64,000 nt of DNA, taken from the NCBI RefSeq assembly GCF_003334355.1, contig NZ_QOWP01000008.1; one strand, given 5' to 3'. The notes beneath the pieces were generated by a model that had not been told where the DNA came from, made no database searches, and saw nothing but the letters and a program-made list of their open reading frames with translations. How positions within the stretch are numbered: position 1 is the stretch's first letter; the number at the start of each line of letters is the position of its first letter. The position numbers were made by a program, and so were the translations under genes. Shown one piece after another: positions 1,755 through 41,421 of the stretch. Source of the stretch: Escherichia coli. GTDB taxonomy: Bacteria; Pseudomonadota; Gammaproteobacteria; Enterobacterales; Enterobacteriaceae.

Positions 1755-3089
1755 ATGAATAATGACAATACCGATTACGTGAGTAATGAATCAGGGACGC
1801 TTTCGCGATTATTTAAACTACCTCAGCATGGGACCACCGTCCGCACAGAATTGATTGCGGGGATGACCACTTTTTTAACCATGGTGTACATCGTTTTTGT
1901 GAACCCGCAAATCCTCGGCGCGGCACAAATGGACCCGAAAGTGGTGTTTGTTACCACCTGTTTGATTGCCGGTATCGGCAGTATTGCGATGGGGATATTT
2001 GCTAACTTACCCGTGGCGCTGGCTCCGGCAATGGGGCTGAACGCCTTCTTTGCCTTCGTGGTCGTGGGGGCGATGGGCATCTCCTGGCAGACCGGGATGG
2101 GCGCAATATTCTGGGGCGCAGTTGGACTATTTTTGCTCACGCTGTTTCGTATCCGGTACTGGATGATCTCCAACATTCCCTTAAGTTTACGTATTGGTAT
2201 CACCAGCGGAATTGGATTATTTATCGCCTTAATGGGATTAAAAAATACTGGCGTTATTGTCGCCAATAAAGACACGCTGGTGATGATTGGCGATTTAAGT
2301 TCTCACGGCGTGTTGTTAGGTATTTTAGGGTTTTTTATTATAACCGTGTTGTCATCACGTCATTTTCATGCCGCGGTGCTGGTTTCTATTGTGGTGATGT
2401 CTTGCTGTGGATTATTTTTCGGTGATGTTCATTTTAGCGGCGTCTATTCCATCCCGCCTGATATTAGCGGCGTCATTGGTGAAGTAGATTTGAGCGGCGC
2501 GTTAACACTTGAACTCGCCGGTATCATTTTCTCCTTTATGCTGATCAACCTATTTGATTCATCAGGAACATTAATTGGTGTAACTGATAAAGCGGGCTTA
2601 ATAGATGGTAACGGTAAATTCCCCAATATGAATAAGGCGCTGTATGTTGATAGCGTCAGTTCGGTGGCGGGTGCGTTTATCGGTACCTCGTCTGTTACTG
2701 CCTATATTGAAAGTACTTCTGGTGTGGCAGTCGGTGGCCGCACGGGGCTGACTGCGGTTGTGGTTGGCGTTATGTTCCTGTTGGTTATGTTCTTCTCACC
2801 GCTGGTGGCGATAGTTCCTCCTTACGCAACCGCCGGAGCGTTAATCTTTGTTGGCGTGCTGATGACTTCGAGCCTGGCGCGCGTTAACTGGGATGATTTT
2901 ACCGAATCGGTGCCTGCGTTTATTACCACGGTGATGATGCCCTTTACTTTCTCGATCACCGAAGGGATTGCACTCGGCTTTATGTCGTACTGCATCATGA
3001 AAGTATGCACCGGGCGCTGGCGCGATCTGAACCTGTGTGTGGTGGTGGTCGCAGCTCTGTTTGCACTGAAGATTATTCTGGTGGATTAG
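1755..3089 (+). CDS. adeQ: adenine/purine permease (NCS2/AzgA-like), 444 aa
   Basis: ORF 1677..3089; internal ATG at 1755 gives MNNDNTDYVSNESGTLSRLF and 444 aa; hydrophobic multi-TM protein divergent from ade. Confidence 0.75.
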   Translation: MNNDNTDYVSNESGTLSRLFKLPQHGTTVRTELIAGMTTFLTMVYIVFVNPQILGAAQMDPKVVFVTTCLIAGIGSIAMGIFANLPVALAPAMGLNAFFAFVVVGAMGISWQTGMGAIFWGAVGLFLLTLFRIRYWMISNIPLSLRIGITSGIGLFIALMGLKNTGVIVANKDTLVMIGDLSSHGVLLGILGFFIITVLSSRHFHAAVLVSIVVMSCCGLFFGDVHFSGVYSIPPDISGVIGEVDLSGALTLELAGIIFSFMLINLFDSSGTLIGVTDKAGLIDGNGKFPNMNKALYVDSVSSVAGAFIGTSSVTAYIESTSGVAVGGRTGLTAVVVGVMFLLVMFFSPLVAIVPPYATAGALIFVGVLMTSSLARVNWDDFTESVPAFITTVMMPFTFSITEGIALGFMSYCIMKVCTGRWRDLNLCVVVVAALFALKIILVD

Positions 3090-3141
3090 TAACTGGCGAG
3101 GGTTTCCAGATATCATGAGTTCTGATTACGCAGGAGAACTC

Positions 3142-3594
3142 ATGATCTGGATAATGCTCGCCACGCTGGCGGTAGTGTTTGTGGTTGGTTTTCGGGTGCT
3201 GACATCCGGGGCCAGAAAAGCGATTCGCCGTCTCAGCGATCGGCTGAACATCGATGTCGTACCCGTGGAGTCGATGGTCGATCAAATGGGAAAGTCAGCT
3301 GGTGACGAATTTTTACGTTATTTGCATCGTCCGGATGAGTCGCACCTGCAAAACGCCGCGCAGGTGTTGCTCATCTGGCAAATTGTCATTGTCGATGGTA
3401 GCGAACAGAACCTGCTGCAATGGCATCGGATTTTACAAAAAGCTCGCCTCGCCGCGCCGATTACCGACGCTCAGGTCAGGCTGGCGCTAGGTTTTCTGCG
3501 CGAAACCGAACCTGAAATGCAGGATATTAATGCTTTTCAGATGCGCTATAACGCGTTCTTTCAGCCTGCCGAGGGCGTTCACTGGTTGCATTGA
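3142..3594 (+). CDS. yicN: small inner-membrane protein YicN-like, 150 aa
   Basis: ORF 3115..3594; start placed at MIWIMLATLAVVFVVGF (ATG 3142); one N-terminal hydrophobic helix. Confidence 0.55.
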   Translation: MIWIMLATLAVVFVVGFRVLTSGARKAIRRLSDRLNIDVVPVESMVDQMGKSAGDEFLRYLHRPDESHLQNAAQVLLIWQIVIVDGSEQNLLQWHRILQKARLAAPITDAQVRLALGFLRETEPEMQDINAFQMRYNAFFQPAEGVHWLH

Positions 3595-9227: not shown

Positions 9228-9322
9228 TGGCGGAAGATCACAGGAGTCGAACCTGCCCGGGACCGCTGGCGGCCCCAACTGGATTTGAAGTCCAGCCGCC
9301 TCACCGGAGACGACGATCTTCC
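9228..9322 (-). tRNA. selC: tRNA-Sec (selenocysteine tRNA), 95 nt including CCA
   Basis: Reverse complement of 9228-9322 reads GGAAGATCGTCGTCTCCGGTGAGGCGGCTGGACTTCAAATCCAGTTGGGGCCGCCAGCGGTCCCGGGCAGGTTCGACTCCTGTGATCTTCCGCCA, the recalled E. coli selC sequence. Confidence 0.92.
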
Positions 9323-24335: not shown

Positions 24336-26670
<2,335 letters not shown>

Positions 26671-26961: not shown

Positions 26962-27786
26962 CTATTTCTTCTCTGTAATTTTTACACTGTTTTCCAACTG
27001 CTTGATGCTGACCTGCGGGGTCGGCAACTCCTCAGGCATGGTTCCGCCAAGTTCCTGAATGGTTTGCCTCACCTTGCGACCCACGTCAAAGTGTGTGGTG
27101 TTTGCTTGCTGTTTTGAATTCACGCCATCCCGCTTGAGTTTTTCTTCTGTTTGGGTAGCTCGAAAGAGATTAGCCGCCAGTTCTGTTGAACCCATATGAT
27201 CCAGGATCTTCTGACTCTTTTTCAGCCCCTTCCGCTGATGGATGGCTTTCTGATCTAATCCACCATACAGCCCCCGGTAACCATGATTCTGAAATATGGC
27301 GAAATCGATAGCTGTCGCTACCCCAGCTTGCTGCGCTGCCTCAACTAATTGTTTGTTATGTTCTTTCAATTCATTTCTCAGAAAAAGACGCTTTTCGTCT
27401 TCACGAAGTTGCCTGAAAGCTTCATCGTCAGCCAGCTCCTGCCGTCGGGTCTGGATAGCAAAATAAGTTTGCCCTGCCGCAATAACCGGTTTCGCAGGGT
27501 CGCCGTTTTGTACTACCAGGTAACAGGCATAGCGGGAGAGATGAACATCTTCAAGTTCTCGTTGAGCCCCTGAACCTAATACAACCATTTTGGTGGTTTC
27601 AACGAAATGGTCAGATGCAGCTTGATTGCTGGCTTCGCACGCTTGAGTCGCGCGGGCAAGTACCTTTTGAAAATTGCGCCAGTCCCGATAATCCAGTAAC
27701 GGTGCCAATTCTCTCGCTGACCAAAATTCTTGCCCTTCAGTGCCATAATGCCGTATTTCTTCAAAAGGTTGATGATGTTCGTTCAT
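26962..27786 (-). CDS. dinD: DNA-damage-inducible protein D, 274 aa
   Basis: ORF 26962..27798; start MNEHHQPFEE; LexA box directly upstream. Confidence 0.7.
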   Translation of the reverse strand: MNEHHQPFEEIRHYGTEGQEFWSARELAPLLDYRDWRNFQKVLARATQACEASNQAASDHFVETTKMVVLGSGAQRELEDVHLSRYACYLVVQNGDPAKPVIAAGQTYFAIQTRRQELADDEAFRQLREDEKRLFLRNELKEHNKQLVEAAQQAGVATAIDFAIFQNHGYRGLYGGLDQKAIHQRKGLKKSQKILDHMGSTELAANLFRATQTEEKLKRDGVNSKQQANTTHFDVGRKVRQTIQELGGTMPEELPTPQVSIKQLENSVKITEKK

Positions 27787-27831
27787 TGCCCACTCCATGT
27801 GATATCGATTGCAAAGAAAGTAAATCTGTAA

Positions 27832-27847
27832 CTGTATTTATATACAG
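27832..27847. promoter_or_regulatory. LexA (SOS) box CTGTATTTATATACAG upstream of dinD
   Basis: exact CTGT-N8-ACAG palindrome with AT-rich centre, about 45 bp upstream of the dinD start on the minus strand. Confidence 0.7.
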
Positions 27848-27939
27848 TTGTGAGTATCTCACGTTCTCAGTGTGCTGGGCAAAAAGACATCGCAAAATCT
27901 GGAACAGGCACGCAAAACAGAATTGAAAGTTGCGGAGAA

Positions 27940-27970
27940 GAAAAATGCCGCTCTGTTTGAGTGGGCGGCA
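27940..27970 (-). terminator. rho-independent terminator downstream of yicC
   Basis: minus strand reads atgccgcc-loop-ggcggcat followed by TTTTT, about 40 nt after the yicC stop. Confidence 0.55.
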
Positions 27971-28007
27971 TTTGTGAAGGCTGAAAAGTAAGAATTGGCG
28001 TTACGAG

Positions 28008-28871
28008 TTATTCAATGTTCTGAATCTGTTCGCGCATCTGCTCAATCAACACTTTCAGCTCAATCGCGGAGTTTGTCACTTCGGCATTGATAGACTTCGA
28101 AGCAAGAGTGTTCGACTCGCGGTTGAACTCCTGCATCATAAAGTCCAGACGACGACCAACGGCTTCTTTTTTCTTCAGAATGTTGTACGTCTCATTAACA
28201 TGCGCTTCGAGGCGGTCCAGTTCTTCGGCAACGTCAATTCGTTGTGCCAGCAGAACCAACTCCTGCTCCAGACGGTTGTTTTCCAACTGCACCTGAGCAT
28301 CTTCCAGCTTCGCGACCAAGCGTTCACGCTGCCATTGCAGGATTTCCGGCATATGGGAGCGGACTTTGACCACTTCGGCGGTGACGCCTTCCAGACGCTG
28401 CTCAATCAACGCTTTCAGCGCCTGACCTTCGGTTTCGCGAGCGATGATAAAGTCATCCAGGGTGCCATCCAACGCCGCGAGAATTTCAGCGGCAATCGCG
28501 TCGAGATCCTGCTCCTGGGCTGCCATCACGCCCGGCCAGCGTAGAATATCAACCGGGTTGATTTCCCCTTCGTCACTCTGCATTTTTACCCAGTTCGCGG
28601 CAGTTACCAGCTGTTTAGCCAGTTTTTCATTGAGGATCAGCTCACCTTGTGCGCTAACATCTGGCTCATAGCGCAGGGTACATTCCACTTTACCGCGCGT
28701 CAGGCGAGAACGAATACGCTCACGAACGACAGGTTCAAGGCTACGGAACTGCTCCGGCAGACGAAAGTAAGTTTCCAGATAACGCTGGTTTACCGAGCGC
28801 ATTTCCCAGGTTGCGCTCCCCCATTCACCCTTGATTTCACGCCGGGCGTAGGCGGTCATACTGCGGATCAT
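28008..28871 (-). CDS. yicC: YicC-family stress-induced protein, 287 aa
   Basis: 287 aa; MIRSMTAYARREIKGEWGSATWEMRSVNQRYLE; divergent from rph. Confidence 0.75.
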   Translation of the reverse strand: MIRSMTAYARREIKGEWGSATWEMRSVNQRYLETYFRLPEQFRSLEPVVRERIRSRLTRGKVECTLRYEPDVSAQGELILNEKLAKQLVTAANWVKMQSDEGEINPVDILRWPGVMAAQEQDLDAIAAEILAALDGTLDDFIIARETEGQALKALIEQRLEGVTAEVVKVRSHMPEILQWQRERLVAKLEDAQVQLENNRLEQELVLLAQRIDVAEELDRLEAHVNETYNILKKKEAVGRRLDFMMQEFNRESNTLASKSINAEVTNSAIELKVLIEQMREQIQNIE

Positions 28872-28997: not shown

Positions 28998-29714
28998 ATG
29001 CGTCCAGCAGGCCGTAGCAATAATCAGGTGCGTCCCGTTACCCTGACTCGTAACTATACAAAACATGCAGAAGGCTCGGTGCTGGTCGAATTTGGCGATA
29101 CCAAAGTGTTGTGTACCGCCTCTATTGAAGAAGGCGTGCCGCGCTTCCTGAAAGGTCAGGGCCAGGGCTGGATCACCGCAGAGTACGGCATGCTGCCACG
29201 TTCTACCCACACCCGTAACGCTCGTGAAGCGGCGAAAGGTAAGCAGGGTGGACGCACAATGGAAATCCAGCGTCTGATCGCCCGTGCTCTTCGCGCGGCA
29301 GTAGATTTGAAAGCGCTGGGTGAGTTCACCATTACGCTGGACTGCGACGTGCTTCAGGCTGATGGTGGCACGCGTACCGCGTCGATTACGGGTGCCTGCG
29401 TGGCGCTGGCAGATGCGCTACAGAAGCTGGTGGAAAACGGCAAGCTGAAAACCAACCCGATGAAAGGGATGGTAGCCGCAGTTTCTGTCGGAATTGTGAA
29501 CGGCGAAGCGGTTTGCGATCTGGAATACGTTGAAGACTCAGCCGCAGAGACCGACATGAACGTAGTGATGACCGAAGACGGGCGCATCATTGAAGTGCAG
29601 GGGACGGCAGAAGGCGAGCCGTTCACCCATGAAGAGTTACTCACCTTGTTGGCGCTGGCCCGAGGGGGAATCGAATCCATTGTAGCGACGCAGAAGGCGG
29701 CGCTGGCAAACTGA
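28998..29714 (+). CDS. rph: ribonuclease PH, full-length 238 aa
   Basis: ORF 28974..29714; start [16 protein letters not shown] (ATG 28998); C-terminus ...[14 protein letters not shown] is intact (not the K-12 rph-1 truncated allele). Confidence 0.9.
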
Positions 29715-37320: not shown

Positions 37321-37370
37321 CAGTGCGGTATCAGTATTCAGGTAGCTGTTGAGCCTGGGGCGGTAGCGTG
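37321..37370 (+). promoter_or_regulatory. JUMPstart element with ops site (GGCGGTAGCGTG at 37359-37370), RfaH-dependent antitermination signal for the waaQ operon
   Basis: cagtgcggtatcagtattcaggtagctgttgagcctggggcggtagcgtg matches the JUMPstart/ops consensus, about 50 bp upstream of waaQ. Confidence 0.75.
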
Positions 37371-37419: not shown

Positions 37420-38478
37420 GTGGATAAGCCATTTCGAAGAATTTTGCTCATTAAGATGCGTTTTCATGGGGATATGTTATTAACTACTCCCGTCATTAGT
37501 TCGCTGAAAAAAAATTACCCTGACGCAAAAATCGATGTGCTGCTTTATCAGGACACCATCCCGATCCTGTCTGAAAATCCAGAGATTAACGCGCTCTACG
37601 GCATAAAAAATAAAAAAGCAAAAGCCTCAGAAAAAATTGCCAACTTTTTTCATCTCATCAAGGTATTACGTGCCAATAAGTATGACCTTATCGTCAATCT
37701 TACCGATCAATGGATGGTTGCTATACTGGTTCGCTTATTAAATGCCCGTGTGAAAATTTCCCAGGATTATCATCATCGGCAGTCTGCTTTTTGGCGTAAA
37801 AGTTTCACCCATTTGGTGCCGTTGCAGGGTGGAAATGTGGTGGAAAGTAACTTATCCGTGCTGATACCATTGGGACTTGATTCGTTGGTGAAGCAGACAA
37901 CCATGAGTTACCCGCCTGCAAGCTGGAAACGTATGCGTCGCGAACTTGATCACGCTGGTGTTGGACAAAATTATGTGGTTATCCAACCTACGGCGCGGCA
38001 AATCTTCAAATGCTGGGACAACGCCAAGTTTTCCGCTGTGATTGATGCCTTACATGCTCGTGGTTATGAAGTCGTTCTGACGTCCGGCCCAGATAAAGAC
38101 GATCTGGCCTGCGTCAATGAAATTGCGCAGGGATGCCAGACGCCACCAGTAACGGCGCTGGCTGGAAAGGTGACCTTCCCGGAACTTGGTGCGTTAATCG
38201 ATCATGCGCAGCTGTTTATTGGCGTTGATTCCGCACCGGCGCATATTGCCGCTGCAGTTAATACGCCGCTGATATCGCTGTTTGGTGCGACAGACCATAT
38301 TTTCTGGCGTCCCTGGTCAAATAACATGATTCAATTCTGGGCGGGAGATTACCGGGAAATGCCAACGCGCGATCAGCGTGACCGAAATGAGATGTATCTT
38401 TCGGTTATTCCGGCGGCAGATGTCATTGCTGCTGTCGATAAATTACTGCCCTCCTCCACGACAGGTACGTCGTTATGA
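37420..38478 (+). CDS. waaQ: LPS heptosyltransferase III (GT9)
   Basis: ORF track 352 aa; start codon in the track is GTG at 37420 (exact start uncertain); RILLIKMRFHGDMLLTTPVISSLKK heptosyltransferase N-terminus. Confidence 0.8.
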   Translation: MDKPFRRILLIKMRFHGDMLLTTPVISSLKKNYPDAKIDVLLYQDTIPILSENPEINALYGIKNKKAKASEKIANFFHLIKVLRANKYDLIVNLTDQWMVAILVRLLNARVKISQDYHHRQSAFWRKSFTHLVPLQGGNVVESNLSVLIPLGLDSLVKQTTMSYPPASWKRMRRELDHAGVGQNYVVIQPTARQIFKCWDNAKFSAVIDALHARGYEVVLTSGPDKDDLACVNEIAQGCQTPPVTALAGKVTFPELGALIDHAQLFIGVDSAPAHIAAAVNTPLISLFGATDHIFWRPWSNNMIQFWAGDYREMPTRDQRDRNEMYLSVIPAADVIAAVDKLLPSSTTGTSL

Positions 38479-40404: not shown

Positions 40405-41421
40405 ATGAGTGCCCACTATTTTAATCCACAAGAGATGATCACTAAGACAATCATCTTCGATGAAAGGCCAGCGGCGTCAGTGGCATCATCATTCCATGTT
40501 GCTTATGGCATTGATAAAAACTTTCTTTTTGGTTGTGGTGTTTCAATCACGTCAGTTTTGTTACATAACAACGACGTGAGTTTTGTTTTCCACGTTTTTA
40601 TTGATGATATCCCTGAAGCCGATATCCAGCGTTTAGCCCAATTGGCGAAAAGCTATCGTACCTGTATCCAGATCCATCTGGTAAATTGTGAACGGCTTAA
40701 GGCATTACCGACGACCAAAAATTGGTCTATTGCCATGTATTTCCGTTTTGTAATTGCAGATTACTTTATTGATCAACAAGATAAGGTTCTTTACCTGGAT
40801 GCTGATATCGCCTGTCAGGGAAACTTAAAGCCGCTGATAACAATGGATCTTGCCAATAACATTGCTGCTGTTGTTACTGAACGCGATGCTAACTGGTGGT
40901 CGTTACGGGGTCAAAGTCTGCAGTGTAATGAACTTGAAAAGGGTTACTTTAATTCAGGTGTCCTGTTAATTAATACACTAGCGTGGGCGCAGGAGTCCGT
41001 TTCTGCTAAAGCGATGTCGATGCTTGCTGATAAAGCCGTCGTTTCCCGTTTAACCTATATGGATCAAGATATACTTAATCTTATCCTGTCAGGGAAAGTT
41101 AAATTCATTGATGCTAAATACAATACGCAATTTAGTTTAAATTATGAATTAAAAAAATCATTTGTTTGTCCAATTAATGATGAAACCGTATTAATTCATT
41201 ATGTCGGCCCGACAAAACCCTGGCATTACTGGGCCGGTTATCCAAGTGCGCGACCTTTTATCAAAGCCAAAGAGGCATCGCCCTGGAAAAATGAACCGTT
41301 AATGCGGCCAGTTAACTCAAACTATGCTCGTTATTGCGCCAAGCATAATTTTAAACAAAATAAACCAATTAACGGGATAATGAATTATATTTATTATTTT
41401 TATTTAAAGATAATAAAATGA
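40405..41421 (+). CDS. waaO: family-8 LPS alpha-1,3-glucosyltransferase (WaaO/WaaI type), 338 aa
   Basis: GT8 signatures (YGIDKNFLFG, LYLDADI, NSGVLLIN); first outer-core gene after waaP; symbol assigned by position in an R1/R4-type order. Confidence 0.65.
   Translation: MSAHYFNPQEMITKTIIFDERPAASVASSFHVAYGIDKNFLFGCGVSITSVLLHNNDVSFVFHVFIDDIPEADIQRLAQLAKSYRTCIQIHLVNCERLKALPTTKNWSIAMYFRFVIADYFIDQQDKVLYLDADIACQGNLKPLITMDLANNIAAVVTERDANWWSLRGQSLQCNELEKGYFNSGVLLINTLAWAQESVSAKAMSMLADKAVVSRLTYMDQDILNLILSGKVKFIDAKYNTQFSLNYELKKSFVCPINDETVLIHYVGPTKPWHYWAGYPSARPFIKAKEASPWKNEPLMRPVNSNYARYCAKHNFKQNKPINGIMNYIYYFYLKIIK

Follow-up and report, generated by a model that had tools for sequence, protein, structure and literature searches.

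For dinD of Escherichia coli K-12, binding of LexA to the SOS box, in vitro or by ChIP, and derepression upon mutation of this box are reported in literature, and the site is said to be included in the compilation of Lewis et al. from 1994 as well as in that of Fernandez de Henestrosa et al. from 2000. The box is printed as ACAACTGTATATAAATACAGTTACA in Tables 4 and 7 of a study in which the UV induction of dinD was found to be LexA-dependent by RT-qPCR, using lexA71::Tn5 (Def) and lexA3 (Ind-) strains (PMC3009722). In an RNA-seq experiment, dinD was induced 9.8-fold by AZT with a 12-fold dependence on LexA cleavage (lexA3), and a heterology index (HI) of 2.2 was given for the site (PMC11228462). 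Upon treatment with ciprofloxacin, the dinD transcript, at a log2 value of 0.25 after 1 min, has reached 4.2 after 50 min, and transcript and DinD protein both climb over 120 min (PMC11002266). A delayed induction of dinD has been noted as well (PMC2577331). A review from 2019 counts dinD among the genes with a known SOS box and refers to both of the above compilations (PMC6590174). With regard to function, the protein itself has been described to inhibit RecA filaments of the postsynaptic type (Uranga et al., 2011, as cited by others). Among the literature matches listed, there was no LexA ChIP paper that includes dinD.

The operators of umuDC, sbmC, recN and tisB/istR-2 have the CTGT-N8-ACAG core, a TA-rich spacer and a low HI in common with the one of dinD, and they score 24.7–28.3 bits vs. 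25.3 bits for dinD. The flanks of the core are different, being AA...TT in dinD and TA...TA in the other high-affinity operators. Moreover, dinD has a single box; recN has three LexA boxes. At the protein level, the closest described relatives are encoded by DinD genes in type I R-M operons (PADLOC PDC-S13; DinD-HsdS fusions, e.g., Btr190I), with products that are 64–82% identical to the DinD protein studied here. In literature these are found as single cases, i.e., the S subunit of Btr190I that is fused to dinD and a dinD gene located between hsd genes. The relatives embedded in R-M operons lie between hsdM and hsdS or hsdR, in the same direction, and have no LexA box, whereas dinD of E. coli is a solitary gene under a LexA-controlled promoter of its own.

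The site analyzed here is part of a stretch of 64 kb of E. coli DNA, which is called the window. According to the original prediction, it is an exact CTGT-N8-ACAG sequence with an AT-rich centre, located about 45 bp upstream of the start of dinD on the minus strand, and forms a canonical SOS box that is placed to repress this DNA-damage-inducible gene. The sequence and its position are borne out, and the reading as the SOS box of dinD is supported. The match is exact and the spacer, ATATAAAT, consists entirely of A and T. Read on the minus strand, the 16-bp core is CTGTATATAAATACAG, which is contained in the 20-mer AACTGTATATAAATACAGTT, and exactly 45 nt (27831..27787) separate it from the annotated dinD ATG (27786). 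The operator is intergenic, in the yicC-dinD interval, and abuts the best predicted promoter (Table 1). In an alignment, the 20-mer is base-for-base the one of K-12 MG1655, and it is equally identical to the published dinD SOS box. In MG1655, dinD (pcsA, b3645) also lies between yicC and yicG, its ATG is equally far from the box, and the -35, TG and -10 elements predicted here are the same. An alignment of 241–245 nt, which runs through the yicC-dinD intergenic region into the first dinD codons, shows seven differences, i.e., six substitutions and one single-base gap; from the -35 element to the ATG there is one, in the 5′ UTR.

Altogether, the palindrome is, with a probability of about 0.95, the single high-affinity LexA operator of the E. 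coli dinD promoter. For the strain of the window, the case for LexA control of dinD rests on identity with K-12, and the test of the LexA dependence of dinD induction has already been published for the identical sequence in K-12. The site is the dinD SOS box known from textbooks, and its role as operator, its strength and the dependence of dinD on LexA have all been described. It adds nothing new on SOS regulation, and it is a real textbook regulatory site that was recognised from sequence alone.

Table 1. Coordinates of the dinD operator and of the features discussed with it. Positions are those of the window, unless another locus is given.
Feature	Position	Strand	Basis or remark
LexA operator (SOS box) of dinD, 20-mer	27849..27830	minus	matrix score, K-12 identity, published box
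16-bp core of the operator, CTGTATTTATATACAG	27832-27847	plus	
Predicted -35 hexamer of the dinD promoter, TTGCCC	27877..27882	minus	relaxed hexamer search, predicted
Predicted extended -10 element, TGaGATACT	27853..27861	minus	TG 27861-27860, GATACT 27858-27853, predicted
Hairpin followed by U-run, likely yicC terminator	27943..27973	minus	RNA fold; function putative
Shine–Dalgarno sequence of dinD, GGAG	27793..27796	minus	read from sequence; 6 nt before dinD ATG
dinD CDS, 274 aa, non-K-12 N-terminal allele	26962..27786	minus	NF008573, Bro-N, RefSeq annotation
Insertion in other strains, at window site 27832-27847	L087 61-76 and 1376-1400; L085; L086		
Example of an R-M locus, L017	hsdM 2-1477, dinD-like 1501-2316, hsdS 2382-3581		

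The identity of the regulated gene is based on several elements. With 504.7 bits over aa 1–274, the protein exceeds the cutoff of 242 bits of NF008573, the NCBIfam equivalog for DNA damage-inducible protein D, and it contains a Pfam Bro-N domain at aa 10–105. The order pyrE-rph-yicC-dinD-yicG-ligB in the window is the one of K-12, on the E. coli chromosome, and thousands of E. coli genomes in RefSeq have the ORF annotated as dinD. A query of 311 nt around the site has matches in 4707 of the 5426 complete E. coli genomes, all of them chromosomal and under the names 'dinD' and 'yicC'. In RefSeq, the start of the identical locus is the ATG at 27786 (MNEHH...), which has a Shine–Dalgarno sequence in front of it; the start in the ORF list is an in-frame ATG at 27798 (MEWAMNEHH...), which has none.

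Promoter context and proposed mode of repression

From the surroundings of the operator, we infer promoter hexamers, a transcription start and a steric mode of repression for dinD. In a relaxed search of positions 27780–27990, the best pair of hexamers was TTGCCC and GATACT with 18 nt in between, having 8 of 12 hexamer matches and additionally the TG of an extended -10 element. With default settings, a promoter and terminator scan of positions 27600–28100 found nothing. The predicted promoter implies that transcription of dinD would start near 27846, inside the operator. With such a start, the 20-bp operator would span roughly -3 to +17, which is a common arrangement among SOS genes. With regard to an experimental transcription start, no paper on the dinD promoter was found, and dinD is not listed in the supplementary data of Kim et al. 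(2012) or of the tiling-array study.

The upstream gene yicC is co-directional with dinD and ends at 28008. It is followed by a hairpin of -12.4 kcal/mol (z -3.1; none of 200 shuffled sequences was as stable) and a U-run, which would likely insulate the dinD promoter from upstream transcription. The loop of this hairpin is 13 nt long, explaining why it was missed by the consensus terminator scan. A scan with Rfam gave no match near the site. Because of the orientation of yicC and the presence of the hairpin and U-run after it, dinD is the sole gene that the box is placed to control.

The proposed mechanism is as follows. In undamaged cells, a LexA dimer would bind the two CTGT/ACAG half-sites. 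With its first base 4 nt downstream from the predicted -10 hexamer, the operator would cover the predicted start, so that bound LexA is expected to block either initiation by RNA polymerase or promoter clearance. Upon DNA damage, RecA filaments on single-stranded DNA would bring about self-cleavage of LexA, after which the operator would be vacated and dinD transcribed. As the site is near the consensus (HI of approximately 2.2), LexA is expected to leave it later than most other operators, with full induction coming late. The low HI predicts tight repression as well as late full induction, which agrees with the slow rise of dinD after ciprofloxacin (PMC11002266) and with the delayed induction mentioned above (PMC2577331).

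It is improbable that the LexA site, although functional, acts as a roadblock, and not by occluding a promoter, on transcripts that reach dinD mainly by read-through from yicC or from another promoter. The co-directionality of yicC is in line with such a role, as is the weakness of the predicted dinD promoter, which is poor by consensus and escapes the default scan. However, a stable hairpin and a U-run stand between yicC and dinD, and none of the E. coli alleles inspected shows a change in the predicted -35, TG or -10 element, although their spacer and 5′ UTR do vary. The LexA-dependent changes of 9.8-fold to 12-fold are, moreover, typical of operators that overlap a promoter.

Variation of the operator and of DinD within E. 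coli

A query of 50 nt centred on the box matches 4445 genomes, 3435 of which at an identity of at least 99%. Several hundred genomes have a variant operator, AACTGTATATAAACACAGTT, that scores 23.2 bits and has intact CTGT and ACAG arms. The variant region (27823–27836 of the window; loci L083 and L084) differs by one change in the spacer, from AAAT to AAAC, and by four more in the 8 bp that directly follow the box downstream; both predicted promoter hexamers, -35 and -10, are the same as in the window.

In 276 E. coli genomes, the two parts of the region are found at separate places. In the two of these genomes that were inspected, an ISKox3-like element of the ISL3 family, approximately 1.3 kb in length, is located exactly in the 8-bp spacer, resulting in the arrangement CTGT-ATATAAAT-IS-ATATAAAT-ACAG with an 8-bp target duplication. 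The exact left junction of the element is found in 223 complete E. coli genomes; NZ_CP085060.1 is an example of a strain with the insertion. With the element in place, CTGT and ACAG are separated by 1.3 kb and dinD is disconnected from its promoter. That the two inspected insertions occurred in different promoter alleles points to the spacer of the dinD box as a hot spot for IS insertion.

Slightly less probable still than a roadblock is that the palindrome matters mainly as a structure or as a target, i.e., as a hairpin in the 5′ part of the dinD mRNA with an influence on how stable this transcript is or how well it is translated, or as a preferred insertion target of ISL3-family elements. 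With a start near 27846, most of the palindrome would be transcribed and its arms could pair (AACUGUAU/AUACAGUU), and the precise insertions, with their duplicated spacer in at least 223 complete genomes and on two promoter alleles, do fit a target. These would, however, be additional properties and not alternatives; operator function fully explains the published LexA-dependent expression of dinD. Of wider interest within E. coli are the repeated use of the operator as an IS target and the dimorphism of the protein under its control.

The dimorphism concerns the N-terminal part of DinD. Between the window and K-12, the proteins are 84% identical overall, with approximately 45% identity over aa 12–83 (codons at 27537–27752 of the window, Bro-N) vs. 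approximately 98% over aa 84–274. The N-terminal allele of the window was found in 2814 of the 5426 complete genomes, in a search by blastn for which the K-12 allele is too divergent to be detected in that segment. The allele of the window resembles the Pseudocitrobacter sequence, and mosaics exist as well (L084). Two unannotated records of 174 kb that are labelled 'Campylobacter phage' (MG065691.1 and MG065686.1) contain a DinD gene whose product is 84% identical to the protein of the window, the same figure as for the K-12 allele. In both records, this may be E. coli DNA.

Statistical strength of the site

To score the site, a symmetrised matrix was made from 17 published SOS boxes (PMC3009722, Table 4), leaving out the one of dinD. 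On this matrix, the dinD site obtains 25.26 bits. In the exact score distribution, this corresponds to a p-value of approximately 1e-9 per position, or 6e-5 sites expected per 64 kb. The scoring with a LexA matrix that accompanied the original prediction as a proposal thereby puts the site at the top of the window by more than 10 bits. The runner-up, at 40961, has 14.55 bits and lies within an ORF, 0.2 matches that good being expected per window; further matches at 25383, 37565 and 28576 score 10–11 bits. Compared to the published boxes, the dinD box ranks 4th of 18, proven sites ranging from 13.6 to 28.3 bits. Its HI, calculated with the Lewis formula on the set of 18 sites, is approximately 2.14, the published value being 2.2 (PMC11228462). 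When the 20-mer is compared to the consensus TACTG(TA)5CAGTA (TACTGTATATATATACAGTA), 17 of the 20 positions agree and three are mismatched, and none of 100 shuffles contained a sequence as good.

The bare 16-bp pattern is weak evidence when taken on its own. CTGT-N8-ACAG occurs twice in the window vs. 0.5 times expected, and two or more occurrences were seen in 10 of 100 shuffles. Such a number is not significant for 64 kb, whereas chance is far from accounting for the full 20-mer. The second occurrence (CTGTTTGGTGCGACAG, 38278–38293) was rejected as a LexA site, having approximately 0 bits, a GC-rich spacer and a position inside an ORF. That the dinD palindrome would likewise be a chance AT-rich intergenic sequence that fits the pattern and has no regulatory role is hardly credible, notwithstanding the frequency of the bare pattern and its clearly non-functional second copy, given the score of the full 20-mer, its identity to the site of a gene that is LexA-dependent in K-12, and the conservation of its arms in E. 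coli alleles that differ in the bases around it.

Relatives of DinD in other species

Proteins that are 64–82% identical to DinD of the window are encoded by at least 80 loci. The sample considered here comprises the 80 loci listed in a scan with one genome per species, Escherichia not being among them, and spans Proteobacteria, Chlorobi, Chlamydiae, Firmicutes, Lentisphaerae, Spirochaetes and one archaeal MAG (Methanolobus). DinD relatives are also present in satellite phages of Streptococcus. In most of the loci listed, clustering of the neighbours places the dinD-like gene between hsdM and hsdS, or between hsdS and hsdM/hsdR, in the same direction. The window protein itself matches the PADLOC models PDC-S13 (413 bits) and 'Specificity_I', a model of 717 positions for a DinD-HsdS fusion (392 bits).

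A LexA box of the gamma type within 300 bp upstream was found for two of the 80 loci listed. In Citrobacter werkmanii (L015), the box CACTGTAAAAATATCCAGTA at 1444–1463 scores 23 bits and is located beside ibpB (ibpAB). In Paraburkholderia madseniana (L041), a box of 20–21 bits at 1384–1403 is found beside an integrase gene. These two loci are unrelated, and their boxes may reflect independent recruitment to the SOS regulon. The dinD-like ORF of C. werkmanii (L015 1492–2265) seems to be split into parts of 104 and 141 aa.

The other 78 relatives listed have no such box upstream, including those of three genera in which dinD is located directly downstream of yicC, i.e., Pseudocitrobacter (L003), Providencia and Morganella (L006 and L014). 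In Pseudocitrobacter, the yicC-dinD interval (L003 1375–1500) is approximately 100 bp shorter, the entire promoter-operator segment being missing. At the enterobacterial loci that have neither R-M genes nor yicC next to dinD, a scan of the neighbours with NCBIfam gave mostly no family match. Phylogenetic footprinting on the relatives listed therefore gives no support for the box beyond Escherichia, as it is not kept upstream of them. Homology to dinD does not imply a LexA box, and among the species sampled LexA control of dinD is a feature of Escherichia and not of the family. The name 'DNA damage-inducible' has been carried by homology to genes that are probably not SOS-regulated. The wider interest of the site lies in this spread of the name 'DNA damage-inducible protein D' to hundreds of genes in R-M operons that have no LexA box.

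The absence of the box from these 78 loci is compatible with a more speculative scenario for the origin of dinD, which we regard as possible but put at clearly less than even odds. E. coli dinD could be a stand-alone descendant of an R-M accessory gene (PDC-S13), of which the promoter and the LexA operator would be a lineage-specific acquisition that wires a defence-type module to the SOS response. The two deeply diverged N-terminal alleles of E. coli and the recurrent IS insertions that split the operator would in that case reflect ongoing selection on when, and against what, the module acts.

Some other features of the window were observed. The rph gene is full length (28998–29714, plus strand), encoding 238 aa from MRPAGR..., and is not the frameshifted rph-1 of K-12 MG1655; the window is therefore not from a K-12 strain of the MG1655/W3110 type. 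The tRNA-Sec gene selC, a classic integration site of pathogenicity islands, is located at 9228–9322 on the minus strand. Lastly, a JUMPstart element is present at 37332–37370 on the plus strand, upstream of an operon of five co-directional ORFs, which is probably the waa operon for the LPS core.
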